A DNA stretch of 64,000 nt from Gammaproteobacteria bacterium (GCA_028289815.1 JAPYNQ010000037.1:3953-67952); one strand, 5' to 3'. Shown: positions 6,417 through 38,324, numbered from the stretch's first letter. Notes: a model not told the origin generated them from the sequence alone. Numbers and translations are program-made.

Positions 6417-6573
6417 GTGGATTCCAATGTATGCTTATGTTCAGTTGATACAAGTACCTCTGAAGTAAGGTTAACTGACGGATGTTCGGTTGGTCACAGG
6501 CCGTAAAGCCTGGTTTAATCCGGGGCATGTAAAATTTTAAGTCTTGAATAAACTTAAGCAGGAGTAATTAAAG

Positions 6574-7989: not shown

Positions 7990-8047
7990 CTCATGTCTGC
8001 CGATAGATTAAAGCCTGTTTACGGGACTACTTAAAGAGGATGAAACA

Positions 8048-8389
8048 ATGACAATATCAAATACGGGCAACTATGAAACTGCCAATACGCTGGAAACCTT
8101 TGGTTTTCTACCTAGGATGAGTGCTACTGAAGTACAGGCACAGGTCGCCTATATCATAGCAAGTGGCTGGACGCCGGCGATTGAGCACGAGCATCCGGAC
8201 AATGCTTTCGATCACTACTGGACGATGTGGAAACTGCCTTTTTTCGGTGAGGGAAACATGGATAACGTGCTGACTGAACTGGAAGCCTGTCATCGTGCAT
8301 TCCCTGGCCATCATGTTCGTCTGACGGGCTACGATAACTATACTCAATCCCAGGGTTCCTGTTTCGTGGTTTATGAGGGTCGTGCATAG
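8048..8389 (+). CDS. cbbS: RuBisCO small subunit
   Basis: 113 aa with the RbcS-like motifs ETFGFLPRMSATEVQAQVAYIIASGWTPAIEHEH...YWTMWKLPFFG. It is immediately downstream of cbbL. Confidence 0.95.
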   Translation: MTISNTGNYETANTLETFGFLPRMSATEVQAQVAYIIASGWTPAIEHEHPDNAFDHYWTMWKLPFFGEGNMDNVLTELEACHRAFPGHHVRLTGYDNYTQSQGSCFVVYEGRA

Positions 8390-8466
8390 GCAGCGATCAG
8401 ATATTGCCCGATTGGGGTCGGAATCTATACGAGGACGACCGTTTAATTCAGTCACCGGGGTTAATT

Positions 8467-10572
8467 ATGACACAAACAACGCGCGAGCTTGTTCTGGCAA
8501 GACGCAAGGCAATATCCACAACGGGCAAAGCTGGACTGCCCGGCGGTGAACGCCCTGCGCCGATATGCGCCTCTGTGCGTCCGGCAGACGATCAGCCGGC
8601 TGCTATGGCATCTGCAACTATCGAAACAGCGGGCGTACATTCGTCTTCAAGTACCGGTCGGGTAGCCTCCCTGGCTCGTCGTCGGGCAATGTCTTCGCAT
8701 GGCAAAGCCGGTTTGCAGAGCAAGGATCGTATGCGCAGCGCAGACATGAACGCCGTGGCCATCCCGGATTCCACTACGACGACCGTGGACAAACAGCTTG
8801 GCTGTGATGATGATGACGCGATACACAGCTCACAGACCACACTACCTTTATCCGGCGGCTTGTCTGTAAACAGGCCCAGAGCATCCATGTCTGCAGCTCG
8901 CGCCGCGTCGCGTGCTCGCCGTCAGTTAACATCATCACGAGGTAAAGCGGGTATTAGCAGCAATGGGATGTCTCCTGCACAGGCAGTGTGTATGGGTAGC
9001 TCAGGTATGTCTGGTCGTGACATGTCGAAGGCCGTCCGCGAACAACGCAGCAAAAGTGGTAACCCGGTTGGCAGGCAATCGCGTCCGTGTGGTCGTGTTC
9101 GCCCTTTGAAGAATTCCACAGCCAGTATGGCGCGGGATGCTCTCTGGAAAGTTGGTGCCAGCGAGACCGCCAGAGGGCGGACAGTAACTGGTACCATGGT
9201 AGGCTATAGTCCGGATGTAACTGGTAGCGAAGCAGGTACCTGCCGCAACATTACTGGTACGAAATACTTGGGAGCAGATATGTTCCGTGATTTTTGTCAG
9301 ACCGGTACCATGCCCCATAAGACTGCTAGGGTTATGGCCAAGACGTCTCAAGGCAGCTCCATATCAGCAAACCGAATGGGGCATGGTGAAAATGCCACCA
9401 TGAAAGTTACTGGCGATAACATTGGTCGATCTGCGAGGGTTATAGGCGATAAATCGGGCATGGCCCGTGAACTTACCGGCACCCGGTACATGACCCCGGT
9501 AAATATCGGTAATGCGCCTGCCAAGGTTGGTATGAGCGCGACGCTGCGCCATAGCGGTGTGACCGGCACCATGATCGGTCGTCGCGATAATATGACTGGC
9601 GATGAAGTCGGAAGCTGTCACAACATTACCGGTGACGATTACATTGGTCAGGAGCAGTTCACTGATTTCTGCAAGGCTGTGCCAGCGCCACAGGATCAAA
9701 AAGCAGGTGTTTCCTCCACTGGCAGGGGAAACGCAGCGACCGGTACCATGACAGGCCGCTTTGGCAGGGTGACCGGCAACGAGCCGGGCACCTGTAAGGT
9801 GGTTACGGGCACGTCCTATGCTGGCCCAGAGCAGGTAACCGCACACTGTGAGGCGCCTGTGGTAGCGGCGGTCAAGGGGCGTACACACCCTCCGACCGAT
9901 ACACCTGGTCCGGCCATGAGTGGTCGGCAGTCAGGAGTCAATGGTATTGTGACCGGTGCGGATAAAGGTGTCTGCGAGTCGGTTACAGGCACGCCGTACA
10001 TAGGTGCGGATCAGTTCGCCAATGCTTGTCCAGCGACACCTGCAGATGTCACGAGCCCGGACCTTTCTCAGAAGCCTGAGAGTGTATCATGGGGGCGTTT
10101 CAGTGTCACGCCGCCTTCCGGTGGTGCCGCTCATGCCAAAGGTTCTACTGGTGTCGCAGGTAATCGTTTTGAAGCTAGGCGCGATATTACCGGCCCCTTT
10201 GGTATGGCGAATGGCAAGGTGACCGGTACCGAAGAGATGCGCTCTGGTGGTGGGATACAATCCGGCAAACCTCATCCGGTAGCGGCAAAAAAGTTCGAGG
10301 GTCGTACCAAGGCACGTATTACCGGTGAAGGTCAAGATGCGGGTTTGAGGATTACCGGCAATGACTGGGTGCGTAACCACCATGTTACTGGTACGGAAGG
10401 TCGTTCCGCGGCGCTTCGCAATCCAACCATACGCATGGGCATGGTCGCTACTATGGCGGTCGAGCAGAAGCGCAATGAAGCACTGCCTGTTCCAAATAGT
10501 AGAGTAACCGGTGGCAGCGGTAACACGGCTAAAGGCTCATTGATTACCTATTCGGGCGGAGCACGCGGTTAA
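8467..10572 (+). CDS. csoS2: Carboxysome scaffold protein CsoS2
   Basis: Likely start MTQTTRELVLARRKAISTTGKAGL at 8467 (N-terminal RuBisCO-binding-peptide-like repeats RRxAxSxxGKAG x3-4). Highly repetitive G/T-rich [VI]TG[TN] motifs with interspersed Cys are typical of the CsoS2 middle region. Position between cbbS and csoSCA matches. Confidence 0.9.
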   Translation: MTQTTRELVLARRKAISTTGKAGLPGGERPAPICASVRPADDQPAAMASATIETAGVHSSSSTGRVASLARRRAMSSHGKAGLQSKDRMRSADMNAVAIPDSTTTTVDKQLGCDDDDAIHSSQTTLPLSGGLSVNRPRASMSAARAASRARRQLTSSRGKAGISSNGMSPAQAVCMGSSGMSGRDMSKAVREQRSKSGNPVGRQSRPCGRVRPLKNSTASMARDALWKVGASETARGRTVTGTMVGYSPDVTGSEAGTCRNITGTKYLGADMFRDFCQTGTMPHKTARVMAKTSQGSSISANRMGHGENATMKVTGDNIGRSARVIGDKSGMARELTGTRYMTPVNIGNAPAKVGMSATLRHSGVTGTMIGRRDNMTGDEVGSCHNITGDDYIGQEQFTDFCKAVPAPQDQKAGVSSTGRGNAATGTMTGRFGRVTGNEPGTCKVVTGTSYAGPEQVTAHCEAPVVAAVKGRTHPPTDTPGPAMSGRQSGVNGIVTGADKGVCESVTGTPYIGADQFANACPATPADVTSPDLSQKPESVSWGRFSVTPPSGGAAHAKGSTGVAGNRFEARRDITGPFGMANGKVTGTEEMRSGGGIQSGKPHPVAAKKFEGRTKARITGEGQDAGLRITGNDWVRNHHVTGTEGRSAALRNPTIRMGMVATMAVEQKRNEALPVPNSRVTGGSGNTAKGSLITYSGGARG
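10287..10293 (+). other. In-frame A_AAA_AAG slippery heptamer inside csoS2 (candidate -1 programmed ribosomal frameshift site)
   Basis: Zero-frame codons are GCA AAA AAG (..VAAKKF..). A -1 shift would read KKVRGSYQGTYYR and stop at TGA 10326-10328, removing roughly the last 94 residues. Confidence 0.4.
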
Positions 10573-10603
10573 TTTTCTATTGGCATATGCTCATTTAGTC
10601 AAT

Positions 10604-12133
10604 ATGTTAAACGCACGTCAAAAGTCAACACGCAGCAGGGCAGGTCGCACTATGCACCGCCGCCCTGCGGTCAGTACCCTGCGCCCGGGCGGTCGTGTTG
10701 GTGAAGGTCGACCCGATACTGCTTGGAGCGGCTGCCATGCGTTGGTGCACGCCCAGGAAAATGCCCGTTTACATACCTATGAAAATCGTGTTAAGGAGTC
10801 GTTTGATGCCATCGTTCCGGTACTGAAGCAGATATCCGCGATTCAGCACGATGCTGATTTTGCGATCAGAGCACAGCGCATGGCGCGTGAGCGCTTGGGG
10901 TTTGCACTGCCGGAGGTGTTGTTGGACGATGCCTGGATCGAGCAGCTTGATATGCGCAACCTGTTTGCCTGGAGCGTCTTTGAGACTTATCGCCGCTTCT
11001 GCGATGAGGCAATTATGCATGCTCCTCTGGGCAATAATGATGGCATGGAATTCCAGGAATTTCTGCGGCAATGTGGCTTCCATAAGCTGGATGTTTCGCC
11101 ATGTTCAGACGGTCGTCTGGCTCATGTCATTCGTTATGTTCTACGTCTGCCGTACCGGTTTGTGCGTCGCCGTTCCTATGCGGGTGCGATGTTTGATGTT
11201 GAAGACAGCCTCGAAAAGTGGGTGCGTACCGAACTGATCCGTTTTCGTGAGGGTAGGCCTAATACGGCTGATGAACCGACGCGTTATCTGAAAACGGTAG
11301 TTTATCATTACAGTTCCGTGGATCCCGATCATCAGGGTTGTGCGGCGCATGGCTCCGATACTGTCAGAGCGATGCAGTGCGGAGTGGATCGTTTGCGTGG
11401 TTTTCAGCAGGCTGTTGAGAATACCTACTGCTGTGGTGCATCAATTGACAAGCTGCTGCTGGGCATGGACACGGATACAGACTCCATCCGAATTCATATG
11501 CCGGACGATAATGGCGGCGTCAGTCCAGAGAACTATATTGACAGCTTGGAGCTTTATGATGCGACCTTGCATATGAGCGCAACCGCGGCCGAGCGCTGGA
11601 TTGTTGACCGGGTGAATGAAAAAGGTGGTACTGTGTTACCGGCTGGCATGGCCCGTTTCATGGTTTATCTGCTGACGAATAACCTATCTCAGCTTGAGTA
11701 TGTCCGTCGGTATCACGGCGGTCATTATGAGGATATCGGACACAGTGAACGCTTTATTGGTGCTGGCATCGGTTTTGAGGAAGTTCAGCTGCGTAATCTG
11801 ACGTTCTTTTCCTACATGAATACCGTTGAAGAGGCTGCAGCTGACCTAGATGTCGGTATCAGGATATTTACCAGCCTGAATGTATCGCATGGTCTGCCGA
11901 TACCGGTTGTTGTTCGCTTTGATTATCACGGCGATGTGCCGGGTGCGCGTGAACGGGCTGGACAGCGTTGTGGTCGCGTGACAGATGCCCTGCATGGTCG
12001 TTACCGTGAGCTAACTGATCGAGGCTTGTTGCACACCCTGCGGGTCATTCGCAATATTGATGCTGCCGACTCGATTGAGATTCTCGGTTCTTCGGTAAAG
12101 ACAACGGCAACTATGATGGGGGTGCATGGATGA
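10604..12133 (+). CDS. csoSCA: Carboxysomal carbonic anhydrase CsoSCA (CsoS3)
   Basis: About 510 aa, sitting between csoS2 and csoS4A. Blocks such as CGFHKLDVSPCSDGRLAHVIRYVLRLP and YAGAMFDVEDSLEKWVRTELIRFREG match what I recall of CsoSCA. The start is ambiguous (TTG 10580 or ATG 10604). Confidence 0.85.
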   Translation: MLNARQKSTRSRAGRTMHRRPAVSTLRPGGRVGEGRPDTAWSGCHALVHAQENARLHTYENRVKESFDAIVPVLKQISAIQHDADFAIRAQRMARERLGFALPEVLLDDAWIEQLDMRNLFAWSVFETYRRFCDEAIMHAPLGNNDGMEFQEFLRQCGFHKLDVSPCSDGRLAHVIRYVLRLPYRFVRRRSYAGAMFDVEDSLEKWVRTELIRFREGRPNTADEPTRYLKTVVYHYSSVDPDHQGCAAHGSDTVRAMQCGVDRLRGFQQAVENTYCCGASIDKLLLGMDTDTDSIRIHMPDDNGGVSPENYIDSLELYDATLHMSATAAERWIVDRVNEKGGTVLPAGMARFMVYLLTNNLSQLEYVRRYHGGHYEDIGHSERFIGAGIGFEEVQLRNLTFFSYMNTVEEAAADLDVGIRIFTSLNVSHGLPIPVVVRFDYHGDVPGARERAGQRCGRVTDALHGRYRELTDRGLLHTLRVIRNIDAADSIEILGSSVKTTATMMGVHG

Positions 12134-12393
12134 AAATTTGCCAAGTGGAGAAGCCATTGGTAGCTACCAATCGTATTTCGGCCATGGAGCATAAACACCT
12201 TCAGGTAGTGAAAGATGGCAGTGTACGTCTGGTTGCGGTTGATGCCGTGGGTTGCATACCAGGAGATTGGGTGATTTGCGTGGGCAGTTCCGCAGCGCGC
12301 GAAGCAGCGGGCAGTAAAGGATATCCTAGCGATCTGACAATAGTCGGAATTATTGATCACTGGGATGCAGGCCAGAGTGAAGGTGGTCGGTAG
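12130..12393 (+). CDS. csoS4A: Carboxysome vertex pentamer protein CsoS4A (EutN/CcmL family)
   Basis: 87 aa, MKICQVEKPLVATNRISAME... matches the BMC-P fold pattern. Its start overlaps the csoSCA stop (ATGA). Confidence 0.85.
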   Translation: MKICQVEKPLVATNRISAMEHKHLQVVKDGSVRLVAVDAVGCIPGDWVICVGSSAAREAAGSKGYPSDLTIVGIIDHWDAGQSEGGR

Positions 12394-12647
12394 TGGAAAT
12401 TATGCAGGTTGATCAGCCGCTGGTCTGCACTCGTCGCGTACAAGGCTTACACGACACCAGCCTCCGTGTATTGCGTGACTGCAATAATGCAGTTCACGTA
12501 GCGGTTGATCCTGTCGGGTGTCGTAAAGGGCATTGGGTGTTTACATCAAGCGGTTCGGCGGCCCGTTATGCAGCGGGAAATTTCGGAATTCTTGCCGATC
12601 TGACAATTTGCGGCATTATTGATTTTTGGGAGCCTGATGAGAGTTAG
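12393..12647 (+). CDS. csoS4B: Carboxysome vertex pentamer protein CsoS4B
   Basis: 84-aa paralogue of CsoS4A (MEIMQVDQPLVCTRRVQGLHD...), abutting it. Confidence 0.85.
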   Translation: MEIMQVDQPLVCTRRVQGLHDTSLRVLRDCNNAVHVAVDPVGCRKGHWVFTSSGSAARYAAGNFGILADLTICGIIDFWEPDES

Positions 12648-12739
12648 GTGACCGGGAAGGCTGTGACCTAACGAACTGATCGATGTTGTGGCACAGCCTA
12701 GTTTTACAAACCAAAACTATATTGTTAGGAGATATAAAA

Positions 12740-13039
12740 ATGGCAAATGATAATTACGGCATTGCATTGGGCATGATTGAAACACGTGGGCTGGTTCCGG
12801 CTATTGAAGCCGCGGATGCAATGACTAAGGCCGCGGAAGTCCGCTTGATCGGTCGAGAGTTCGTTGGTGGTGGTTACGTTACCGTTCTGGTTCGCGGTGA
12901 AACCGGTGCGGTCAATGCTGCGGTTCGCGCTGGTGCGGATGCTTGTGAACGTGTTGGTGACGGTCTGGTTGCTGCGCACATCATTGCGCGTCCTCACCGT
13001 GAGGTTGAGCCGGTATTGCCGACGGGTGCGGACGCCTGA
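12740..13039 (+). CDS. csoS1: Major carboxysome shell hexamer protein CsoS1 (BMC-H)
   Basis: MANDNYGIALGMIETRGLVPAIEAADAMTKAAEVRLIGREFVGGGYVTVLVRGETGAVNAAVRAGADA is a canonical BMC domain. AGGAGA RBS at 12727-12732 before the ATG at 12740. Only one csoS1 copy is present. Confidence 0.9.
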   Translation: MANDNYGIALGMIETRGLVPAIEAADAMTKAAEVRLIGREFVGGGYVTVLVRGETGAVNAAVRAGADACERVGDGLVAAHIIARPHREVEPVLPTGADA

Positions 13040-13658
13040 TAAATGGTAATTGTTTATTTGGGCTAATTTGACAGAACGGATAAGCTATGGCGGATGGCAC
13101 AAATAATACTGTATTTGGCATGACTGGAACACATAGGCCGTTCCCCAACATTGACCTGTTATCATGCTGATGGTAAAAATGGACTAGCACACACTCGGAT
13201 ATCTTTGTCGGGTACTAGGCTTGGAGCTATCTGCTGCGCACTTGTACATCACGTAGCCCAGACTTACAGCAGCTTGGGATTTGGATGAGGCGGTTGGAAA
13301 GTTTAGCACTGAAGCCGAACAGGAATTGGGGCATGCCAAGCGGAGGATCATCAGCCGTATGTTCCCGGTTGGTGCCGCCTCTGATGCTTCACAGCTACGG
13401 TCGGTGAAACTTGGGTAAACTTCCAGCAGCAGCTCAAATATGATTACGAATTTGAGGTGGAACTGGTGTCGCTCTACGAAGATGTGGTACGACACTGTTC
13501 CGTAATTGCAGGCCAAGGCAATCGTTATTATTTGAGACTCTGCTTGAAGAAGAGAAAGAATGTGGATGGTCGCTGGTAAACTGGCTGCAGCAAATTTCCT
13601 GATCGAATAATATTTCGGCTGTGATGCGCCGGTTTCCCCGTGTCTTTGGAGCATAGCA

Positions 13659-13919
13659 ATGGTACAAGAGTGGCGAGAGTGTGCCCGACCGATGCGGTTG
13701 GAAAAGCGCTATGAATTTCCGGACTATAGGACCCTGCGCGACTTTCTTGATCTTGTCGCTGACCTGTCGGAACAGCAAGGGTTATATCCCGATATGGGTT
13801 TTGCCAAAAGCTATGTGAATATCACTATCCACCTTAACGAGGGTAGCCAGGTTATTAGTGAAGACCAGCGCTGCTTTGCACGGCAACTTGACAGGCTCGC
13901 CGGCGAATTGAGAGGTTAA
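13659..13919 (+). CDS. Pterin-4a-carbinolamine-dehydratase-like protein (alpha-carboxysome RuBisCO assembly factor, acRAF-like)
   Basis: 86 aa, PCD/DCoH-like size and pattern (RLEKRYEFPDYRTLRDFLDLVADLSEQQGLYPDMGF...NITIHLNE). Conserved position downstream of cso shell genes. Confidence 0.65.
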   Translation: MVQEWRECARPMRLEKRYEFPDYRTLRDFLDLVADLSEQQGLYPDMGFAKSYVNITIHLNEGSQVISEDQRCFARQLDRLAGELRG

Positions 13920-13927
13920 TCCCTGCT

Positions 13928-14554
13928 ATGTCCGTATTTGCAATAGCCGGTAACAAGGGAGGCGCAGGCAAAACAACGTTAAGCGTTCATTTGGCTACCG
14001 CGTTGCATCGGGACACACCAACGGCGCTGATTGATGCTGATCCACAGGGTTCATCTCTGCAGTGGCACGCCATATCCGGTAATGACAGTACCGTCTCAGT
14101 TTTTCGGGCGGAGCAAGACCTGCAGCGACAGGTCCATAATCTGTGTAAGAAATTCGACTATATTTTTGTAGACTGCCCGCCGTCAGTGCATGCGCCCCAG
14201 ACCGATGCGATTCTCAGAATCTGTAATGTTGTTCTGGTACCTGTGCAGCCGTCGCCCATGGATCTGTGGGCGACCGTACATATTGAGCGGGCGATAACAA
14301 ACGCACTCGAGGTAAATCCGTTACTCAAGTCGATGATCGTTATCAATCAGGCAGAAGCAAGGACAACCATGTCAAGGCTTGTAAGAGAAGCGCTTCGGCA
14401 AATTAAATTTCCGGTTGCCGATACCGCGATAACACGCCGAGCGGTATACCGGCACAGTATTTTGTATGGTAGAACTGTATTTGAAATGGGCAGCCTAGGA
14501 CGAATCGCTATGCAAGAAATGCAACAACTAACTAAGGAGATCAAGTCATTATGA
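13928..14554 (+). CDS. ParA/MinD-family ATPase, McdA-like (maintenance of carboxysome distribution)
   Basis: Deviant Walker A AIAGNKGGAGKTTLS at the N-terminus. 208 aa. Located in the cso locus directly after the acRAF-like gene. Confidence 0.75.
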   Translation: MSVFAIAGNKGGAGKTTLSVHLATALHRDTPTALIDADPQGSSLQWHAISGNDSTVSVFRAEQDLQRQVHNLCKKFDYIFVDCPPSVHAPQTDAILRICNVVLVPVQPSPMDLWATVHIERAITNALEVNPLLKSMIVINQAEARTTMSRLVREALRQIKFPVADTAITRRAVYRHSILYGRTVFEMGSLGRIAMQEMQQLTKEIKSL

Positions 14555-14799
14555 GTGATACAGATAAAACTCGTCGAATGTTGATGAATTCTATAGCAAA
14601 AACCAGAGCTGGTGTCCACACAAATCCAGTACCAGCTGAACCGGCCTCACCAAAACCGACTACCAGAAAAAAAACCGTTCGCAAAAAGTCATCCATGGAA
14701 AAAGCATCTGCCCAGAAAGCCTTGATAAATAAATCAATGGCCAGACTGCAACCGGTTATAGACTCATACCAAAGCAAGGGTCGTATCTGGCCAGATTAG
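14551..14799 (+). CDS. Small basic, low-complexity protein, McdB-like partner of the ParA ATPase
   Basis: 82 aa, K/R/P/S/T-rich (PKPTTRKKTVRKKSSMEKASAQK), ending ...SKGRIWPD with Trp near the C-terminus. Start overlaps the ParA stop (ATGA). Confidence 0.5.
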   Translation: MSDTDKTRRMLMNSIAKTRAGVHTNPVPAEPASPKPTTRKKTVRKKSSMEKASAQKALINKSMARLQPVIDSYQSKGRIWPD

Positions 14800-15143
14800 C
14801 TATGTAAACGGAGCTGAATGCAGATCTTGCATGAAGGATGGCCACATTAAATTTTACAGATTGGCCTGAGCTGCTGTCTCGGACGCTATTATGGATTTCA
14901 TAGCATTGCCTGTGTTCAGGCTGGTTTTGCCGGTTTTCAACCCGCTCTGATCTTTAGCTCCGGCCCCATGCCCGGATATTTGATTTGTGTACAGGTGCCT
15001 AGTTAGCAGATTGTTGGTTTCGGTTTGGATAGAGAGGTTGAAAAGGCTTTCTGAGGGCAGCAATGATGTGGTTGCCCTTTTTCAAAATCAAGGACCCGGA
15101 GGGCATTGATTTTGATTCAGGGTGTAGCTGATCTTTCTCTTTA

Positions 15144-15220
15144 TGGCGCGCCTGGCGGGAGTCGAACCCACGACCTTTGGCTTCGGAGGCCAACACTCTA
15201 TCCATCTGAGCTACAGGCGC
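15144..15220 (-). tRNA. tRNA-Arg (anticodon CCG)
   Basis: The reverse complement GCGCCTGTAGCTCAGATGGATAGAGTGTTGGCCTCCGAAGCCAAAGGTCGTGGGTTCGACTCCCGCCAGGCGCGCCA folds as a cloverleaf. Anticodon loop CTCCGAA, encoded CCA end. Confidence 0.9.
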
Positions 15221-16364
15221 TTTTTTGCTTTTTCAAGGCAAGTTCTGAATGGTGTATTCCTAGCATAAAGTGCCACCTTGCGATTTTTTATTGCCATTGT
15301 TCTCGGTGAGATATCGCTGGCCTCACCGAAAGCCTCGGGATTAATCAGGATTCTCTTATGTAATGTACTTTTTACGCTAGGAAAGTGGGGAGGAGTATAA
15401 TGGCATATGGTCGTGGCGTTCAATATATTTCTGAACTTATAGCTATAGCTATTTGGTTGGTGATGTATGTGTATAAACTCAGAAACATATTACACTAATG
15501 AGGAGGTTAAAGGTGAGAGCAATGTCAGTAAATTGCTTACTAGCATGAAAGGCTTCGATTCCATTAGTCGCTATGTCACGAAAAACCGATACTCATAATG
15601 AAGTCATCGCCCATCGTCTAAGAATGCCTGAGTTTTAAAACAAACATGGATTGCAGGTGACCATAGACCACAGCAGTCAAAGTGTTGCACCTTGGCATGT
15701 ATGGAAGCAGGGGTATCGTGAGCAGGGAGTGACCGGCTTGATGCTACAATTCAGGCCTCTACTTTCCCGGGGGAAAGCGTTCTCGTTGTTGGATGAGTGT
15801 GGTGTTGACTCGGATTCGTTCCTCGCGCTAGGATTTTTCCAAGTCTTTAGCATGAGAATAAGTTTGTGTCCTGCCCAAGTTCTGAAGGTCAGCCCCAAGA
15901 CTCGGCCTGTTCCAACGCGTTTACCATGCCCTGACCGGTATTGATGAGGTTAGTAGTTATGCCTTGATCATGGTCATGCCCAAACTCAACAGCCAAGCTG
16001 CCAAGGTGTTGCTTTGAAAAGGATTCCGATTAGCTCCCTTCAGCATTCGGCTGAGCTGCTTCTAGGCCTCCCAGGATGAATGCTATCTGTGAGAAAGTTT
16101 TACTGCGCCGCCCAAGAACAGTTTGTGGACTTCCATGAGGACTTGCTGCTTGTCAACCTGGGTTCGTTTAACAAAAAACTGGCGTACTGGTCAAATTATA
16201 GCGGCGTTTGGCCATGCAAAGGGCTGGGATTACGAACCTTCGTGCAGTATATTATCAACCATAATCAAAAGCACAGTTTGTGGTGGACCCGTACAGGCTG
16301 TTGTTTTCTGGTGCGTCTTTCATTACACTCACCGGCTGGTTTATCTAGATATGAGGATTTGTAG

Positions 16365-31114: not shown

Positions 31115-31555
31115 AAAGCGCACGGCTCTTCTGCCCTGATTACAGGGCGTAGCGCTTTTATGGGCTTTGTGTATAGGCCATAAACTCAGAAATATGTTGC
31201 CGTCGCCAAAATGCCATCGGCGTGCGCCACCAGCGACTTGATCCAGCCCAGTGCCGGGCCGGCTGCCCGTTGTCATCCGCATAGTCTGTTTGATGTTCGT
31301 AGTCTATTGGCATATCCACGCCGGCGACTGCGGCCATACTGGCGGCCACCACGGCTGCGGCATCCGACAGCCGCTAGGTGCGTCCGTCACGGGCGGTAAT
31401 ATCGCCCGTGGCCATCAAACTTGATCAGGGATTGCTGCGCCCGCCGGGTTAAGCTCCTGGGCGCAACAGGCTGTATGTGTGCTGCTCATGGCGCAGCACC
31501 CTAGCGCAGGATTTGTGACAGCGCACCACAAGTGTGTCACTATTTTTTCAGCGCA

Positions 31556-31584
31556 AGAAAAACCGCCCGAAGACGGTTTTTGTT
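31556..31584. terminator. Bidirectional hairpin terminator candidate between the cfa operon and the minus-strand membrane-protein pair
   Basis: aaaaaccgcccgaagacggtttttgtt: stem AAAACCG/CGGTTTT with T/A-runs on both sides. Confidence 0.4.
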
Positions 31585-31684
31585 AAAATTTACGATTATC
31601 GGGGAGGCTGCTTGCGTTTGTCAGTTTCCCTTCCTCGTTGCCGGCTGAATTTATCCAGCCGAAACGATTAACTTCTTCTTGACC

Positions 31685-32275
31685 CTATGCCGCGTTGCGA
31701 GGGCCGCGATGGAAGTGTCCGGCAGGGCGCAAGCTCGACGACGCGATAATGGTATCCGTCATCCCCGCGCTTCGACTGATTAAGCCCAGCATCTTACGCT
31801 GTCCGTTGCGCCAGAAACTGAGCAAAGCAATGCATGGTGTCAGAACCATTGCAAAGGCCAGCATAAGTGGGTTGCGCAAAACCATGACACTGATCACGGT
31901 TAAACAGACGCGCAACATGTCTCCAAGGAGGCGATCACGCAGGGCGATGTCTTCGATTTCCAAGATGGATTTAACCACAGATGACCGTGACTGACGGCGG
32001 TCAACCTGGGTGCCCATCAACGAAAATAGCCACACCCGCCCCCAACAAAAGTATTCCAAGTATCGGTTAATCATGTTGATTTCCGAGCGCATATCGCGGT
32101 ACAGCGGATCATCAAAGCCAAACCCCTGAACCTTACCGGATGAGGCCAGCAAAAAAAGACTATCCCTGACCTCGAATAGGGCTTGACGCCCCCAGTCCAC
32201 CATCAAATTCGGCCACTTGCAACTGAAAAACCAGAATAACAACCCCAAACCGACGAAAAATTCGATGTTATTCAT
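31685..32275 (-). CDS. Hypothetical membrane protein (N- and C-terminal TM segments)
   Basis: 196-aa ORF with hydrophobic helices FFVGLGLLFWFF and LTVISVMVL...AFAMVLTPCIALLSFW. Start overlaps the stop of the upstream small gene (ATGA). Confidence 0.4.
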   Translation of the reverse strand: MNNIEFFVGLGLLFWFFSCKWPNLMVDWGRQALFEVRDSLFLLASSGKVQGFGFDDPLYRDMRSEINMINRYLEYFCWGRVWLFSLMGTQVDRRQSRSSVVKSILEIEDIALRDRLLGDMLRVCLTVISVMVLRNPLMLAFAMVLTPCIALLSFWRNGQRKMLGLISRSAGMTDTIIASSSLRPAGHFHRGPRNAA

Positions 32276-32637
32276 AACTTATCCTCCGGATTAGTCTGCC
32301 CATCGGGCAGGAGATTGCTGGATGTCCTGTTTGGGTCCAGCCGTGATTCCAGTTTTTTGATGTGTTCCTGCATACTGGAGACTTTGCGCAATCTCAGTTC
32401 ATGTTCCCCCAAAGCCCAAATACCAGCAAAAAAAGCTAAGACCCAAGGTATGCCATAATCGGTGTCGCCTAACGCAATGGATACGCCCGTCTCGCTTCCG
32501 GCCAGCGCTTCTACGGAGCAATAGAGATAATAGGCTATAATACAATAGACAGTACCCTTGATTAACAATCCCACAACATTATATGCACGCTCAATAATCA
32601 GCAAGCGAACAGTGTAACGATTTTCCTCATCGCTCAT
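32272..32637 (-). CDS. Hypothetical small 2-TM membrane protein
   Basis: 121-aa ORF with helices VVGLLIKGTVYCIIAYYLY and IPWVLAFFAGIWAL. Coupled to the downstream 196-aa gene. Confidence 0.4.
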   Translation of the reverse strand: MSDEENRYTVRLLIIERAYNVVGLLIKGTVYCIIAYYLYCSVEALAGSETGVSIALGDTDYGIPWVLAFFAGIWALGEHELRLRKVSSMQEHIKKLESRLDPNRTSSNLLPDGQTNPEDKL

Positions 32638-32834
32638 GGTAGCTCATATCGTTTACCCTTGTCTTTAAGGTAAGCGTAATATGCCTACATTGCAAGCGAT
32701 TTTTGTGATTATTTGATTAACTTAGGCTATTTTTTATGAGGGTTCCACCTGTTCAAAGCAGGCATCACCAAAATATTAACCAAGTTACTTGCTATGGATC
32801 ATTCCTAGTATCGCCGAAAATACCCAGCATCATT

Positions 32835-33041
32835 TCACCCAAGCGATACTTTGACGCGCACCCCATCTCGCACAGCCCCGGAATCCACCGAAAGGATAAG
32901 ATATTCCCCATATAAACGGGTTTCCATCGGCTCAGAGCGAGGTCGCTTTATCAGACGCTTAGCATCAAAACCATCTGCGATAGGCATATCCTGAATATAC
33001 ATCTGATCTTGTTCTTGCATCCCTCTGGCAAGTTGCTCCAT
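32835..33041 (-). CDS. Hypothetical 68-aa ORF (possibly a fragment)
   Basis: ORF only. No recognisable motif and no convincing RBS. Confidence 0.15.
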   Translation of the reverse strand: MEQLARGMQEQDQMYIQDMPIADGFDAKRLIKRPRSEPMETRLYGEYLILSVDSGAVRDGVRVKVSLG

Positions 33042-33073
33042 AATCCGCCCTTAATTCTCAATAAGTTTCGTTA

Positions 33074-34324
33074 ATGAATGGTACTCCCTACGTTGTAAAA
33101 TTTTCAGGTGGTCGGTCATCCGGGATGATGCTGATGGAACTACTGAAAGAGGGGAGGTTATCACCAGAACGGGGTGATGTGATTGTGTTTAACAACACCT
33201 CTGCCGAGCACCCGGCGACCTATGATTTTACTCGAACACTCAAGCATCTGGCTGAGGAGCAGCATAACGTTCCTTTCTTCTGGATTGAGTACCAAACCTA
33301 CGAAGATGCTGGCAGATACGGTTGGCAGCGCTACTCTACGTATCGGCTGGTCAATGAATTTCCCTGGAGTGAGGGCAACTTGCAAGGTTATCGCTGGAGA
33401 GGAGAAGTATTTGAAGAAATGATCTCGCAAGCTGGATTTTTGCCCAACATGCAGGCCCGCATTTGCACCCAGAAATTGAAAATCCGCATAACGAATGAGT
33501 TTTTAGCAGACTGGTTGGCACAAAAAGACGGGATAGAACGGCTTGGACACACGGGCGATACGTCCCGAATGAGCGATGACGACGTCGTTCGATGTCACCA
33601 AGCCTGCGGTGGAACAACACCGAATGCTATTTTGTTGGCCAAGAAGTCATTTTTAAGAAAACAACCTTTTGTCAGGGAATCGGTGAGATGGCAGGACTTT
33701 ACGAAAAGCCGGTTATGTATGAGTAATGAGTCGTTCAAGAGCTCAATTCGAGGTGGCAAATGTCAGTTGTTTGGTGAACACGCCGTTGATTATGTTTCCT
33801 GTCTGGGGATACGCAAAGATGAGGAAATTCGGGCTGACAAGATCAGGTCCCGGGTTGATCACGCTAAAGGTCAAAAAACACGTTCTTCTACTGGTCAGCC
33901 CCCAGGGGAACATATTTTTGTGCCATTAGTGGATCATAATATTGTCAAGCGGGATGTCATTGACTTCTGGAAAAAACAACCGTTTGATCTGGAATTGCCT
34001 GATAATGGGCTTTTCTCAAACTGTGTCTATTGTCCCTTAAAGGGCAAGAAGAAACTGACAGCGATAGCGCAAAGTGCGTTATCTTCGTCTATGTCTTCGG
34101 ATGGTCCTGCCTCCATTGACTGGTGGATTGAGATGGAGCGTAAATATCGTCGGGACTTGAGGGCCGAGAAGCGTGCTATCACGTCGAAAAAGAAAGCGGC
34201 GTATATCAGTTTTTTTGGAGCATCCGATGATTGTGTCTATGACAACATCAAAGGTCGAAAAGGCAAGTTAGCAGCAGACTATCTTGAAGAAGATAGCCAT
34301 ATCCCATGTAACTGTACCGATTAA
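33074..34324 (+). CDS. PAPS-reductase-family (PP-loop ATP pyrophosphatase) protein with Cys-rich C-terminal half; not a canonical CysH
   Basis: N-terminal YVVKFSGGRSSGMM (variant of the SGGxDS PP-loop) and VIVFNNTSAEHPATYDF (matches the family block vvFvDTG.eFpET.eF). It lacks the CysH C-terminal ECGLH motif. Cys-rich blocks are present (RCHQAC, CQLFGEH, NCVYCPLKG, CNCTD). First gene of an AT-richer coupled cassette. Confidence 0.7.
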   Translation: MNGTPYVVKFSGGRSSGMMLMELLKEGRLSPERGDVIVFNNTSAEHPATYDFTRTLKHLAEEQHNVPFFWIEYQTYEDAGRYGWQRYSTYRLVNEFPWSEGNLQGYRWRGEVFEEMISQAGFLPNMQARICTQKLKIRITNEFLADWLAQKDGIERLGHTGDTSRMSDDDVVRCHQACGGTTPNAILLAKKSFLRKQPFVRESVRWQDFTKSRLCMSNESFKSSIRGGKCQLFGEHAVDYVSCLGIRKDEEIRADKIRSRVDHAKGQKTRSSTGQPPGEHIFVPLVDHNIVKRDVIDFWKKQPFDLELPDNGLFSNCVYCPLKGKKKLTAIAQSALSSSMSSDGPASIDWWIEMERKYRRDLRAEKRAITSKKKAAYISFFGASDDCVYDNIKGRKGKLAADYLEEDSHIPCNCTD

Positions 34325-34336
34325 TCAGGAGAAGAT

Positions 34337-36211
34337 ATGTCAGAACTTTATTTCAGAACCGGTGAAATGAAGGGATTCACCTCTATTGAACTGGAGCATA
34401 CAAAAAAAGGCTATACGAATCCAATCAGAGAGCTGTTGCAGAATGCCTTGGATGCCTCCCGTGAAGGCGGTAATCGGGTATGCAAGGTGAATATATACAT
34501 TGAGAAAATCCGTATAGGTCAAGTTCCACACATAAAAAAATATAAAGAAGTGCTAAAAAAAGCTATTGATACAGCAAAAGAACAGGGTAGTTATAATGAA
34601 AACTCAAAGCAAAGGGTTGCGCCCATTGAAAAGACCTTGCAGCAAAAAGAGCTAGAGGTGTTGGTGTTCGTCGATGATGGCATAGGGATAAAACAAAAGG
34701 ATCGGGATGCCATACTAACGGGAGGCGTTAGTAATAAGGGCAGTGAAGAATCGGGAGGTTCCTTTGGTGTGGGTCATTTGTCCAGTTATTCACTTTCATC
34801 GCTTCGCTATGTGCTCTACGCCGCTAGGCATAAAGACAATGGTACTACAAAAACACTATATACCGGCTCACCAATTTTAGCTGGGTATAGAGATAAAGAT
34901 GCACAGCGAGGCAACCGGGGCTGGATTGTCGTGAAGAGCCCTGAGAATGAAAAGGATCCAGAGTTTACCTATCCTGAAGAACCCCCCGATTTTATTAAAT
35001 CCAAAATGGATAAACTTGATACAGGTACAGCCATTGCTGTTTTGGGCTTGTCGGAAGCTTGGGGTGGGAGTGCCGAATATGCCATCGTCAGTAATTTTTT
35101 TCATGCTATCAATCATGAAAGTTTAAAGATTACTATCCATAAAAATAGTCGTTCAGAGGAAATCTCTGATGACCGAGTTAAACAGCTGGTCACCGAAAGG
35201 AAAGGTAAGAAACGAGCAAGAGGAGACGAGATACTATCCGGGGCGATGGTTTTTCAAGCATGGCAAGCGATTCAAGAGGAGGGCTCGCAAAAGACCATTG
35301 AGCTCAGTAATTCCGATAAGATTTGTGTCTTCATTAGAAGCGACAAAAGCATCAGTCCTGCTATTATTCTGGTCAGGAATGGGATGGTCGTTGCCCGCCA
35401 TGATTCTATGCTATCCCCAGACATAGACGGACTAAGAAAAGATCCAGGTTTTGAACCTTTTACTGTAATTATTGATGTCGATGGACAAGGTGCCCCGGAA
35501 TTGTTTAGGCTAGTAAAAGGTGCCGAAGGACCCCATCATAATGAATTGCAGAAAGGCCTCCTGAATAGAAATAATGATGAGGAAAAGCTGAAGAAACTAT
35601 TAAAAGAACTAAGCGAGAAGATAAAGGCAGATCATCTGAAAAAAATAGAACGAGATTCTTTTAATTTGCCTTTATTCACCGTGTCCAATAAGGACATGGG
35701 AAAAGCCATCGGTATCAACAAATCAGATGGACAAAGCAAGACAGGGACTCCCACCCGTCCACCAAAAAAACCGCCTGCGTCCAATAATGGAGGGCCGGGA
35801 GAAGGTGGCGGACGCCCTCCACCAACGGTTACTTCCAGATTACTGAAGTCAAAGACTGCTGCTCGATATGTAGAAAAGAGCGACAAATGGGAGGTACGAC
35901 TAAGAATTAATCCTGAAGATCTAAATAATGACAAGGATGATACATACTTGTTAATGGGTTTGGCGGAAGATAATGATAATGATAAGGAACAATGTACTTA
36001 CCTTGATTTCATAACAGCTGAATTGAATGGCGAAGTAGTAGAAATTTCCGATGATAATAAAAGGTCAATTAAACTGGGCCCATTAAATGAAAAAGAGCAA
36101 TATGACCTGATCGCCGAGATTGAAAAACCAGATGATATCGGAAATATGAAAGCGGCTCTCCTGCCAGTATTAGGTTTGAAACGACGTAAAAAATCTGAGG
36201 GGAAACCATAA
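34337..36211 (+). CDS. GHKL (Bergerat-fold, Hsp90/MORC/histidine-kinase-like) ATPase with Pro/Gly-rich linker and C-terminal domain
   Basis: N-box IRELLQNALDAS (ExxxNAxD), G1 box VFVDDGIGI, G2 box GGSFGVGHLSSYS. A low-complexity linker TGTPTRPPKKPPASNNGGPGEGGGRPPP follows, then a charged C-terminal domain. AGGAGAAG RBS at 34327-34334, 12 nt after the gene A stop. Confidence 0.7.
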   Translation: MSELYFRTGEMKGFTSIELEHTKKGYTNPIRELLQNALDASREGGNRVCKVNIYIEKIRIGQVPHIKKYKEVLKKAIDTAKEQGSYNENSKQRVAPIEKTLQQKELEVLVFVDDGIGIKQKDRDAILTGGVSNKGSEESGGSFGVGHLSSYSLSSLRYVLYAARHKDNGTTKTLYTGSPILAGYRDKDAQRGNRGWIVVKSPENEKDPEFTYPEEPPDFIKSKMDKLDTGTAIAVLGLSEAWGGSAEYAIVSNFFHAINHESLKITIHKNSRSEEISDDRVKQLVTERKGKKRARGDEILSGAMVFQAWQAIQEEGSQKTIELSNSDKICVFIRSDKSISPAIILVRNGMVVARHDSMLSPDIDGLRKDPGFEPFTVIIDVDGQGAPELFRLVKGAEGPHHNELQKGLLNRNNDEEKLKKLLKELSEKIKADHLKKIERDSFNLPLFTVSNKDMGKAIGINKSDGQSKTGTPTRPPKKPPASNNGGPGEGGGRPPPTVTSRLLKSKTAARYVEKSDKWEVRLRINPEDLNNDKDDTYLLMGLAEDNDNDKEQCTYLDFITAELNGEVVEISDDNKRSIKLGPLNEKEQYDLIAEIEKPDDIGNMKAALLPVLGLKRRKKSEGKP

Positions 36212-37080
36212 TGCCAGATAATCTAACGCTTGATTTTCCAATCTTAAGAGAAGATAGCGGTGACTTTTCAGAAAAAATCGCTTATGAAGTCGAAGCTAAA
36301 CAGGATGATGGAAAGCTACACATAGAACATAGACTTAAGGGCTGTTCGTTCATTTCAAATATGATTGAAAGGGGCAAGGCTAAATTTTCTGTCAGATTGC
36401 TCTACAAGGATAGTTCCGAGCGACAACATCACCTGTATAACGCAAGCAATCCGTCCATGCAAAACGGAGTCATCGCTATTACGCAGACTATAACCATGGA
36501 TTTTTCTTATGCTCCGGAAATTATGCCTAGTATTATTGCTTTGAAAAAAGAGAAAATCACAGTGAATGATTCATCGGGGCTGACAGACTTCTGGAGATCG
36601 GGCGAATCCTTTTCCATACCTGGATACGCTCGCATTGCTATAGGTCCAAAAATAAAATTCTCCGAGGGAGATGTATCTCATTTGATGAGACTGATTAATG
36701 ACGAAAGCCTTAAAGATGGTGAAATGAAAGTTGAGGTCAATGAATATGCCGGAGAAGGTGAAACCCCTGTTACATTGGTTTGCGGCAGCGATGTCTACGA
36801 TCAGCTGGCCAAACTAAGTCAAGCAGAACCAGTCAATCCCAATAAATCAATGGGTTGGGCTATTGTTACCCAAGCGTTGTGTGCCACCTATGCATATATG
36901 CAGAGTTTAGAGCAAGGCAAGAAAGAAAATGTAGGTGGTGTGCTCTTGCACCACTTGCAAATGCTCGCAGATAAAACAGGAAAGGACTGGAAGGATGATG
37001 ACTTCGAACCTAGCTTGGCTGCTACAAAAATGCATCCCTATGTCCTGAGTGTGTTCAAAGCAGGAGTTGATGATGAGTGA
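36211..37080 (+). CDS. Hypothetical protein (cassette gene C, no recognised motif)
   Basis: 289-aa ORF. Its ATG overlaps the gene B stop by 1 nt (TAATG). Same AT-rich composition. Confidence 0.5.
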   Translation: MPDNLTLDFPILREDSGDFSEKIAYEVEAKQDDGKLHIEHRLKGCSFISNMIERGKAKFSVRLLYKDSSERQHHLYNASNPSMQNGVIAITQTITMDFSYAPEIMPSIIALKKEKITVNDSSGLTDFWRSGESFSIPGYARIAIGPKIKFSEGDVSHLMRLINDESLKDGEMKVEVNEYAGEGETPVTLVCGSDVYDQLAKLSQAEPVNPNKSMGWAIVTQALCATYAYMQSLEQGKKENVGGVLLHHLQMLADKTGKDWKDDDFEPSLAATKMHPYVLSVFKAGVDDE

Positions 37081-37927
37081 ATACAAAAGATTTGATGAAA
37101 AAGTCTGGGCGAGCTTCGGTAAGAAGCTGTTGCCTAAAGATAAAGGTTCCGAGAGATGTCTGGAAGAACAAAGAAAATTCCTTGCTGCTTGTCAATCGGG
37201 AAAAGATGATTTTCTAAAGTATCTTGAGCACAAGGGCCTTCTGGATAATGCTGTCGGTGATGACACGGTACATTTTACTTACCAATTTACCGAGAAAGAA
37301 TTCATTTATCCACCTGATGATACTCAGAAAAAAATCTGGGAGGCTTTTGAGATATTACCTGACGAAATAACGTGCAAGTGTGGCTTCTGGGCTTATGTAA
37401 TCATCGAAATGGTTAAATCTGGTCAGATCCGGCCGTTTTTTTTGGCATCCGAATTAAACGGTGCTGATAACACAGGTAGTTATATGATTGACAATGCCCT
37501 AAAATCCAGCGATGCAAGCAAAATAGATAGTTGTGTTAGAAGGATTTTACGTTCTATGTGCAATCCGGAACCGAGAGGTAAAAGAATTGTATTTAATGAT
37601 TTTCATCTCGGAAAAGCCTACTGGCGATGGCAGTGGGCAGACAAAATGTCTAGTATTATGAAGCGCGATCTTATACTGAAAGTTCTAAATGAAAAATATT
37701 ATGCTGAGTTTTCTGCACGGATGCATACTGGGAAAACCTATATAGGTTCGGAAAATATATTCGGCGGATTATTGTTGTTTCTCGAGAAAAATAGAAAAAT
37801 TGGTTCTCCGAAGCTACAGCAAATCATTGAACGAATTAAATACCTGAGTGTATGGAAAGCGATTGAAGCGCAAACCCCAAAATTAAATCAAAAAGAAATA
37901 CAAGAAATAGCAGACTCACTCGGATAG
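37070..37927 (+). CDS. Hypothetical protein (cassette gene D, no recognised motif)
   Basis: About 286-aa ORF. The ATGATG start overlaps the end of gene C (ATGATGAGTGA). Last gene of the cassette. Confidence 0.5.
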   Translation: MMSEYKRFDEKVWASFGKKLLPKDKGSERCLEEQRKFLAACQSGKDDFLKYLEHKGLLDNAVGDDTVHFTYQFTEKEFIYPPDDTQKKIWEAFEILPDEITCKCGFWAYVIIEMVKSGQIRPFFLASELNGADNTGSYMIDNALKSSDASKIDSCVRRILRSMCNPEPRGKRIVFNDFHLGKAYWRWQWADKMSSIMKRDLILKVLNEKYYAEFSARMHTGKTYIGSENIFGGLLLFLEKNRKIGSPKLQQIIERIKYLSVWKAIEAQTPKLNQKEIQEIADSLG

Positions 37928-38043
37928 TATCCAAGTCAGCCATATTCCACATCAATCCGGGTAGTAAATAGTTTCTTCCAAGAAAGGAATGTTGGGGGCT
38001 GTTTAATCAACAAGACGAGCAGGTGGGGTGTCTTGCCAGAAAA

Positions 38044-38296
38044 TTCACCCCCTTCCCTCCGGATGGAATGCGTTCTCTGCCGGCACGTTTGTATCGCCAT
38101 TAGGCCCGGCCGTTTTTCGCACCTCATAGATAAAGCTCAATACATTTGGCAGAAACAGCGCGACCAAAAAAGCTGTGATATTGGCGTGGTCGTAATTCGG
38201 TGTCACTTCGACAAATTCAATACTGACGATATTGCCTGTTCTCGCCGGTTCCTGAAACAGTTCCGGCTCTTCATAATGGAGAAGGCTGTCGGTTAA
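38044..38296 (-). pseudogene. speB: 3' remnant of an agmatinase/arginase-family (ureohydrolase) gene, missing the first ~220 codons
   Basis: The minus-strand frame reads ...ARTGNIVSIEFVEVTPNYDHANITAFLVALFLPNVLSFIYE...*, which aligns with the SpeB C-terminus ([32 protein letters not shown]). There is no start codon. An in-frame stop sits immediately upstream, about 30 nt from the ftsX stop. Confidence 0.5.
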
Positions 38297-38324
38297 TTAT
38301 ACGTCCATGCTCGCCGCCGGGCTG

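Follow-up and report, generated by a model that had tools for sequence, protein, structure and literature searches.

A candidate DNA-modification cassette that couples a putative sulfur-inserting PP-loop enzyme to a distant PDC-M33-like GHKL ATPase trio

The genome of a gammaproteobacterium (Gammaproteobacteria bacterium, GCA_028289815.1) contains a cassette of four consecutive genes, here named A, B, C and D, between cfa and ftsX. The cassette raises the question of what a PP-loop enzyme (A), a GHKL ATPase (B) and two further proteins (C and D) do together. It was analyzed in a 64,000-nucleotide stretch of DNA (JAPYNQ010000037.1:3953-67952), hereafter the window, for which a first-pass annotation had proposed a candidate defence or DNA-modification-like system. 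The cassette is tentatively interpreted as a minimal 'orphan' module of an undescribed phosphorothioate-type DNA modification and defence system, a reading that is given somewhat less than an even chance. There is high confidence that the four genes form a genuine unit that is conserved and moves laterally. Gene integrity, operon structure, foreign composition, conserved linkage, family relationships and neighbouring genes were established directly.

The four genes are intact and translationally coupled and form one operon (Table 1). The A/B junction reads 'gatTAA tcAGGAGAAGat ATG', a 12-nt gap that contains the Shine-Dalgarno sequence AGGAGAAG. B and C overlap by 1 nt (TAATG), and C and D overlap by 11 nt (ATGATGAGTGA). 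These junctions, read directly from the DNA, are exactly those described in the first-pass annotation. The longest open reading frame (ORF) of D begins with a GTG codon at position 37049, but the D homologues start at the ATG instead. The GC content of the cassette is 42.6%, compared with 50.3 ± 1.4% in windows of the same size outside it (z = -5.5), and the cassette is the lowest-GC stretch within the 64 kb. The GC content at third codon positions ranges from 0.37 to 0.48 in the cassette genes and from 0.51 to 0.60 in the flanking cfa and ftsYEX genes. The AT-richness that had been noted by eye thus holds on measurement, both against the flanks and against the rest of the window. The AT-rich stretch 5' of A is presumed to contain the promoter, although a consensus scan of its + strand (32638-33073) detected no promoter-like site.

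Table 1. Features of the cassette, its surroundings in the window and small ORFs of plasmid PDC-M33 loci
Feature	Position	Strand	Description
Gene A	33074-34324	+	416 aa; PP-loop ATP-pyrophosphatase, PAPS-reductase-like superfamily
Gene B	34337-36211	+	624 aa; GHKL (Bergerat-fold) ATPase, distant PDC-M33A homologue
Gene C	36211-37080	+	289 aa; Ig/FN3-like N-terminal region and C-terminal helical bundle; distant PDC-M33B homologue
Gene D	37070-37927	+	285 aa; all-alpha protein, distantly related to DUF6339, distant PDC-M33C homologue
AT-rich stretch 5' of A	32638-33073		Only a 68-aa minus-strand ORF, family unknown; presumed promoter region
Disturbed/acquired region, likely extent	31115-38324		Between cfa and ftsX
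Mu-like prophage I protease fragment	31158-31370	-	PF10123, 7.7e-7, profile positions 29-62 of 330
Two overlapping small ORFs	31685-32637	-	196 and 121 aa, ATGA junction; hydrophobic segments (membrane), no family match
Arginase/agmatinase-family C-terminal remnant	38050-38297	-	PF00491, 8.2e-5, profile positions 240-274 of 280
ORF of ~75-80 aa before GHKL gene	L098 6666-6896		Deinococcus
ORF of ~75-80 aa before GHKL gene	L105 6521-6763		Ligilactobacillus
ORF of ~75-80 aa before GHKL gene	L106 6777-7004		Arthrobacter

Gene A encodes the PP-loop SGGRSS at residues 12-17. All homologues with an N-terminally complete gene call retain the motif, and the stretch around it aligns with the PP-loops of BrxP and TtcA. 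A second block, FNNTSAEHPATY, aligns with the Escherichia coli CysH block LTDTGYLFPETY (DTGYLFPETY). The protein ends in IPCNCTD and lacks the ECGLH tail. In a family alignment, SGGRSS, FNNTSAEHPATY, R129-x-C131-T..K136, C317xxC320 and C412xC414 are invariant. The cysteine pattern (C131, CxxC and CxC) resembles the iron-sulfur (Fe-S) ligand sets of adenosine 5'-phosphosulfate (APS) reductases and DndC. The motifs previously attributed to A, namely a PP-loop and a DTG..FPET-like block in a protein without the ECGLH tail, are all present.

Profile searches place A near the DNA phosphorothioation enzymes. In PADLOC, A matches SspD (7e-7), BrxP (5e-4) and DndC (7.5e-4) and no other family. Among 37 relatives of A, the same three families are matched by 35, 29 and 11 proteins, respectively, again with no other family. 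The matches of A are partial and collinear and lie far under the curated thresholds. The SspD match (PDLC02782; 27 bits) covers only residues 119-152, with the best relative reaching 3e-9; the BrxP match (16.5 bits) is confined to the PP-loop stretch; and the match to the DndC model TIGR03183 (17.8 bits) covers only residues 115-163 and falls short of the equivalog cut-off of 290.4. The 3'-phosphoadenosine-5'-phosphosulfate (PAPS) reductase family PF01507 (PAPS_reduct) gave no match to the window protein at E<=1 in a Pfam search, and relatives of A scored 16.7-21.4 bits against a cut-off of 22.5. A matched no Pfam family and no PDB sequence, even when the family profile was used. When the A profile was compared by hhalign with single E. 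coli sequences, only the DTG..FPETY block of CysH aligned (E 0.18) and nothing beyond the PP-loop of TtcA aligned, a comparison that operates at the motif level and does not rank PP-loop clades. A tblastn search with A retrieved phage 'PAPS reductase' proteins with stretches of 30% identity. At threshold, A is assigned to a housekeeping pathway by neither a CysH nor a PAPS_reduct model, an outcome that favours the first-pass reading. The family comprises 146 clusters at E<=1e-30 among 1.84 billion representatives. By these comparisons, A is assigned as the founder of a small, tight and strongly conserved new PP-loop family and is a putative sulfur-inserting DNA modification enzyme.

The N-terminus of A is lost from public gene calls. 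These calls (396 and 399 aa) begin 17-20 codons past the ATG at 33074 (window 33074-33134) and consequently lack the PP-loop. Because VKFSGGRSS is kept in the homologues whose calls reach that far, position 33074 is the real start of A. Several homologues (405-aa entries) are cut in the same way. Truncation in gene calls may be one reason that the A family has stayed unannotated.

Gene B carries the motifs ELLQNALDA, DDGIGI and GGSFGVG, followed by a Pro/Gly linker, in agreement with the Bergerat fold recognized at first pass. In 29 sequences drawn from all clades, the N-box (ExxxNxxD), G1 (DxGxG) and G2 (GxxGxG) motifs do not vary. The invariant residues include R31, E32, Q35, N36, D113, G115, G117, G141, G144 and G146 and extend beyond these motifs to R347, G349, M350, E397, H401 and D547. 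Outside the ATPase domain, B consists of a conserved middle domain (CRNGMW and AEGPxHN), a low-complexity Pro/Gly-rich linker and a variable C-terminal domain. Pfam scores fall just short of the cut-offs for HATPase_c_3 (22.6 bits; cut-off 25) and HATPase_c (21.4 bits; cut-off 26.4). The B family profile gives weak PDB matches to Hsp90, MORC2/3/4, TopoVI-B and MutL/PMS2 (E 1e-4 to 1e-2). MORC, MutL, Hsp90 and TopoVI-B have the N-box, G1 and G2 motifs in common with B, but the similarity is restricted to the ATP-binding lid region, and the middle and C-terminal domains of B found no match. A search with the single B sequence returned only designed repeat proteins and was rejected as a composition artefact. 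On its Bergerat-fold motifs, B is classified as a member of the GHKL ATPase superfamily.

C and D, in which no motif had been recognized, were modelled by AlphaFold. The C model (predicted local distance difference test (pLDDT) score 81.5) contains N-terminal immunoglobulin (Ig)/FN3-like beta-sandwiches and a C-terminal helical bundle. C is the most divergent of the four proteins, and its gene is always located between B and D. The window C protein gave no Pfam, PADLOC or PDB sequence match and has no recognizable catalytic motif, so that the earlier description stands for C. The D model is all-alpha (pLDDT 93.6; predicted template modelling score 0.90) and has no solved structural relative, and searches of the PDB with the D sequence and profile gave nothing meaningful. 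D contains a conserved basic stretch, RRILRS..NPxPRGKR. The D homologue of locus L068 matches DUF6339 (PF19866) at 1.9e-9 (38 bits; cut-off 23.2), and six of 58 close relatives gave weak matches, but window D itself did not match. These scores suggest that D is a distant relative within the DUF6339 superfamily, which refines the earlier note that no motif could be recognized in D. C and D were also considered as paralogues, and this was rejected: they co-cluster only via fused ORF calls, with no direct C-D matches.

The B-C-D trio is related to PDC-M33, which is an untested phage-defence candidate in PADLOC (Payne et al., bioRxiv 10.1101/2024.01.29.577857). It belongs to a set of 145 'guilt-by-embedding' candidates (cassette CAS_00129, 98 occurrences), and the text of that paper gives no function for it. 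Window B matches PDC-M33A at 9.5e-27, and window C and D do not match PDC-M33B and PDC-M33C. The syntenic B, C and D proteins of L068 match the three models at 6e-43, 5.9e-6 and 0.005, respectively, whereas genuine PDC-M33 trios score 1.5e-108, 4.5e-37 and 9e-24. By these models, the window trio is a distant relative rather than a member, and B-C-D is accordingly classed as a divergent version of PDC-M33. The two share the same three-gene order, which in PDC-M33 consists of a GHKL ATPase (~630 aa), a second protein (~290 aa) and a DUF6339 protein (~250-290 aa). Unlike the window cassette, PDC-M33 as defined has no PAPS-reductase-like gene. The earlier statement that the four-gene set is not a named system therefore needs qualification: the combination is undescribed, but its B-C-D part relates to a PADLOC candidate.

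PDC-M33 occurs on plasmids of Bacillota, Actinomycetota, Deinococcota and haloarchaea. On plasmids of Deinococcus, Arthrobacter, Ligilactobacillus and Lactococcus, genuine trios reside in islands with restriction-modification (R-M) or Shedu systems and are not accompanied by an A-type gene. Some of the plasmid trios adjoin Dcm-Vsr or type I R-M genes, and two adjoin a Dcm methylase gene. The third gene of the plasmid trios is named 'DUF6339 family protein' by NCBI. In the three plasmid PDC-M33 loci whose annotation was read, the GHKL gene is immediately preceded by a short hypothetical ORF (~75-80 aa; Table 1), which may represent a fourth PDC-M33 component. The window contains no equivalent of this ORF.

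The cassette recurs elsewhere as a unit whose context and gene order vary. The A profile, run against 185,579 species genomes, identified 154 relatives, and 80 loci were retained for a census of B, C, D and neighbouring genes by tblastn and hidden Markov models. All four genes were detected in 58 of the 80 loci, and A was accompanied by at least one of B, C and D in 11 more. Ten loci contained A only, about half of them at contig ends. Recurrence of the same four genes in dozens of unrelated genomes makes a chance association unlikely. Three gene orders are observed: A-B-C-D in the clade of the window; A-X3-(X4)-B-C-D, where X3 is a cysteine desulfurase gene and X4 a GmrSD_N/DUF262 gene, in a clade that is larger and more distant; and, in nine loci, B-C-D-A. 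Conservation decreases in the order A > B ≈ D > C. Two loci contain multiplied sets: in L060 (OZ244031.1), a single A is surrounded by three B-C-D sets, and in L071 (OZ241864.1), a complete set is followed by a second A-B pair. These tandem multiplications may reflect diversified specificities.

The flanking genes of the related loci differ almost everywhere. The carriers belong to at least 12 phylum-level lineages, including Gamma- and Alphaproteobacteria, Nitrospirota, Nitrospinota, Gemmatimonadota, Chloroflexota, Spirochaetota, Campylobacterota, Bacteroidota, Latescibacterota, Acidobacteriota, Binatia and Entotheonella. Almost all of them are metagenome-assembled genomes of marine invertebrate symbionts, mostly from sponges and bivalves, or of marine bacteria. 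Window A is 63% identical to Nitrospirales copies and 42-54% identical to most gammaproteobacterial copies, a pattern that indicates lateral transfer. The system probably spreads among marine symbiotic bacteria. Viral or plasmid carriage of A was rejected because no relative was found in IMG/VR and no full-length match in phage and plasmid collections.

The genes that accompany A in related loci suggest what A does. An IscS/DndA-like cysteine desulfurase gene (X3), which scores 2e-135 with IscS, 2e-117 with DndA and 2e-78 with Pfam Aminotran_5, is present in 31 of the 80 loci, usually directly after A. A GmrSD_N/DUF262 protein of 570-610 aa (X4) is encoded in 20 loci, and a GmrSD_N+HNH gene directly follows D in L002 and L021. 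Six loci contain a DGQHR/DndB-like gene (TIGR03187 4e-31, DndB 1.8e-14). Four contain TIGR04096, a 'DNA phosphorothioation-associated putative methyltransferase' (8e-175), which in each case is followed by a gene for a sigma-70 region-4 domain protein. In the Thiodubiliella-type loci L003, L006 and L007, a PD-Lambda-5_A-like gene and an unknown 317-aa gene lie 3' of D, and a DUF4007 gene and a BrxC/PglY_N ATPase gene, which form an Ssp or BREX type 4 core, lie further 3'. No PAPS reductase gene for this DUF4007+BrxC core was visible within the locus sequence examined. One Thiodubiliella-type locus is preceded by a type I/IIG R-M system. Taken together, the desulfurase, DUF262, DndB-like and TIGR04096 neighbours of A point to phosphorothioate-type DNA modification, and the defence-island location of related loci and their sulfur- and phosphorothioation-associated genes support the initial proposal of a defence or DNA-modification-like system.

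In three representatives (P0300, P0302 and P0297), a complete A domain with all A motifs is fused to a C5-cytosine DNA methylase. The methylase part of P0300 matches PF00145 at 3.9e-70 and contains the PCQ and ENV motifs. The P0300-type fusion (823 aa; locus L102, 10001-12472, on an ERZ25072740 contig) stands alone, with no B, C or D gene around it. Its surroundings are similar to those of a plasmid or an integrative and conjugative element and encode ParA, Rep3_C, pRha, a topoisomerase, SSB, a secretin, T2SSE and pilins. The standalone fusion may serve a mobile element as a self-protection or anti-restriction enzyme. That A occurs fused to a Dcm methylase indicates that DNA is its substrate. 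As a one-protein system, the fusion is also a simple object for testing the chemistry.

The cassette was compared with the three known contexts of DNA backbone sulfur, Dnd, Ssp and bacteriophage exclusion (BREX) type 4, all of which employ P-loop or ABC ATPases (PMC10853773, PMC12839542). The single-strand DNA phosphorothioation system SspABCD(-SspE), whose SspD is the best PADLOC match of A, shares with the cassette a PAPS-reductase-like PP-loop enzyme and an ATPase partner. As in the A loci, a dedicated cysteine desulfurase is found in only some Ssp loci, and coupling to DUF262 is frequent. The N-terminal domain of SspE is reportedly a DUF262 domain. Support for this domain assignment is found in PMC8092258. 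The Ssp partners SspB (DUF4007) and SspC (BrxC/DUF499) are absent from the cassette, the Ssp ATPase is of the P-loop type in contrast to the GHKL type of the cassette, and C and D have no Ssp counterpart. DndABCDE(-FGH), which phosphorothioates double-stranded DNA, resembles the A loci in combining a cysteine desulfurase, a PP-loop/Fe-S sulfurtransferase, an ATPase and accessory proteins, and DndB-like DGQHR genes and TIGR04096 occur in some A-related loci. The cassette lacks DndD (an ABC/SMC-type ATPase), DndE (a double ribbon-helix-helix protein) and DndFGH, and B, C and D gave no match to DndD or DndE in PADLOC, NCBIfam or Pfam. In BREX type 4, the modification enzyme BrxP belongs to the PAPS-reductase family and has a cysteine-rich C-terminal region, as does A, and the cysteine desulfurase is sporadic (56% of taxa; PMC12839542), as in the A loci. 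BREX type 4 also exchanges a methylase for a sulfur enzyme on one core, which is paralleled by the Dcm-adjacent PDC-M33 trios and the A-linked trios. BrxC, PglZ and BrxL are absent from the cassette and its flanks, and the cassette also lacks DUF4007. Since the defining partners are missing, the cassette does not belong to Dnd, Ssp or BREX type 4, and its functional likeness to them is drawn by inference. No description of the A-B-C-D combination was found in the literature searched, and a GHKL partner is not mentioned in the Aravind/Krishnan comparative surveys of phosphorothioation and BREX (PMC10853773, PMC12839542).

A mechanism for the cassette is proposed with moderate confidence, its chemistry, substrate and subunit roles all inferred from these relationships. 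A cysteine desulfurase would generate a persulfide, and because the window encodes no desulfurase, housekeeping IscS would have to serve in the window host. Replacement of DndA by IscS is documented for Dnd (PMC10853773), and substitution by housekeeping IscS has been proposed for BREX type 4 (PMC12839542). The window copy, with neither a desulfurase nor a DUF262 arm of its own, would be the minimal form of the system, a state that is also common in dnd and BREX type 4. A, with its APS-reductase/DndC-like cysteines (C131, CxxC and CxC), would probably hold an Fe-S cluster, activate the DNA target with ATP and insert sulfur, most likely as a backbone phosphorothioate. B-C-D would form a PDC-M33-type complex that binds and scans DNA, with B as an ATP-driven GHKL clamp, C as an Ig-like/helical subunit and D as a basic all-alpha subunit. 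This complex would deliver A to its sites in place of DndD-DndE in Dnd or SspB-SspC in Ssp. The delivery role is preferred, since A carries no targeting domain of its own and may be joined to a methylase instead. Where the system is more complete, the DUF262 (GmrSD_N) protein would be the likely restriction arm that reads the mark.

Several observations weigh against this interpretation, and they bear on the alternatives. A lies under every curated family threshold (17.8 versus 290 bits for DndC; no match for PAPS_reduct), so that its link to phosphorothioation depends on partial matches and gene context. Genes for a cysteine desulfurase, a DUF262 protein and a DndB-like protein are all missing from the 64-kb window, and no recognized DNA-binding or nuclease domain is found in B, C or D. 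Moreover, plasmid PDC-M33 trios exist without A, and B-C-D may thus be autonomous rather than a delivery device for A. If so, B-C-D would be a PDC-M33 effector or sensor in its own right, and A, with IscS, would only sulfur-mark self DNA to protect or license it. Such a division of labour would follow the logic of R-M and BREX systems, in which one core works with interchangeable modification enzymes, and it has a precedent in BREX, where PglX is swapped for the PAPS reductase BrxP (PMC12839542). It also accommodates the bona fide trios without A on plasmids in defence islands, some by Dcm-Vsr or type I R-M genes, the proposal of PDC-M33 as a defence candidate by itself and the occurrence of methylase-fused A without B-C-D. 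Nonetheless, an autonomous B-C-D is considered unlikely, given that no nuclease or effector domain is detectable in its three proteins, that a separate DUF262 protein, with HNH in two loci, looks like the restriction arm, and that A alone has no recognizable DNA-targeting domain, just as DndC and SspD need partners.

The methylase fusion fits base modification as well as backbone modification. A could accordingly thiolate a DNA base, such as cytosine or 5-methylcytosine, in the manner of PP-loop/Fe-S tRNA thiolases such as TtcA, without forming a backbone phosphorothioate. The complete C5-cytosine methylase to which A is fused flips out cytosine, A combines a PP-loop with CxxC and CxC cysteines, related loci encode a dedicated cysteine desulfurase, and A is too distant from DndC, SspD and BrxP to guarantee an identical reaction. 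Base thiolation is nevertheless judged quite improbable: the profile matches are only to phosphorothioation enzymes and are joined by the PAPS-reductase-specific 'DTG..FPETY' block, the TtcA alignment is limited to the PP-loop, and the neighbours are the phosphorothioation-associated DndB-like, TIGR04096 and DUF262 genes. An equally long shot is the extension in which A would found a family of DNA nucleobase-thiolating enzymes, with sulfur bases as a new epigenetic self-mark that the GHKL clamp helps to read or write; it is hinted at by the methylase fusion and by the TtcA-like pairing of a PP-loop with CxxC cysteines. A role away from DNA, in tRNA or RNA thiolation, in a sulfur-metabolite pathway on mobile DNA or in ordinary sulfate assimilation by CysH, is very hard to sustain. 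The pairing of a PP-loop enzyme with a cysteine desulfurase is typical of tRNA thiolation, and relatives are annotated by the Joint Genome Institute as 'PAPS reductase/FAD synthetase', but the similarity of A to CysH and TtcA is limited to short motifs, without an ECGLH tail. Furthermore, the distribution is patchy across phyla, with window A 63% identical to Nitrospirales copies, the genes lie in defence-island contexts, A is fused to a DNA methylase, and the cassette is absent from a syntenic relative.

If phosphorothioate-type modification by the cassette proves correct, the coupling of a divergent sulfurtransferase to a GHKL clamp and to two further proteins, both of unknown fold, would constitute a new, independent targeting route, and the cassette would provide the first functional lead for PDC-M33 and DUF6339. 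It could help to explain how PP-loop enzymes that are themselves non-specific reach their sites on DNA. The concentration of carriers in sponge and bivalve symbionts and the transfer across phyla bear on phage pressure in these holobionts.

The chromosomal setting of the cassette was compared with that of a relative, L090, which retains the M16-ftsY-ftsE-ftsX order with FtsX, FtsE and FtsY proteins that are 65%, 84% and 70% identical to those of the window. At the position that corresponds to window 37928-38324, L090 has no cassette and carries an rpoH-like sigma-32 gene (6505-7377) after ftsX. The ftsYEX-rpoH order is the classical arrangement. Seven ORFs downstream of L090 ftsX (6505-16044, including the rpoH-like gene) have no match in the 64-kb window, and synteny with L090 breaks at the 3' end of ftsX. 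The cassette is therefore not vertically fixed at this position. Its foreign composition, the synteny break and an arginase remnant lead to the assignment of the cassette as horizontally acquired, in line with the earlier suggestion, which its low GC content and its absence from the syntenic relative uphold. The cassette is flanked by neither direct nor inverted repeats, no tRNA gene or Rfam feature was found around it, and a mobile-element signature was rejected on these grounds.

The remaining features between cfa and ftsX lie outside the cassette (Table 1). The minus-strand membrane ORFs were rejected as cassette parts because they are not conserved beside the cassette elsewhere. The truncated speB remnant that had been reported beside the cassette is real: it is the arginase-family match between D and the ftsX stop codon, whose N-terminal part is gone. 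At the opposite side, the PF10123 fragment, found within a GC-rich patch that directly follows cfa, resembles a prophage remnant at the left edge of the disturbed region.

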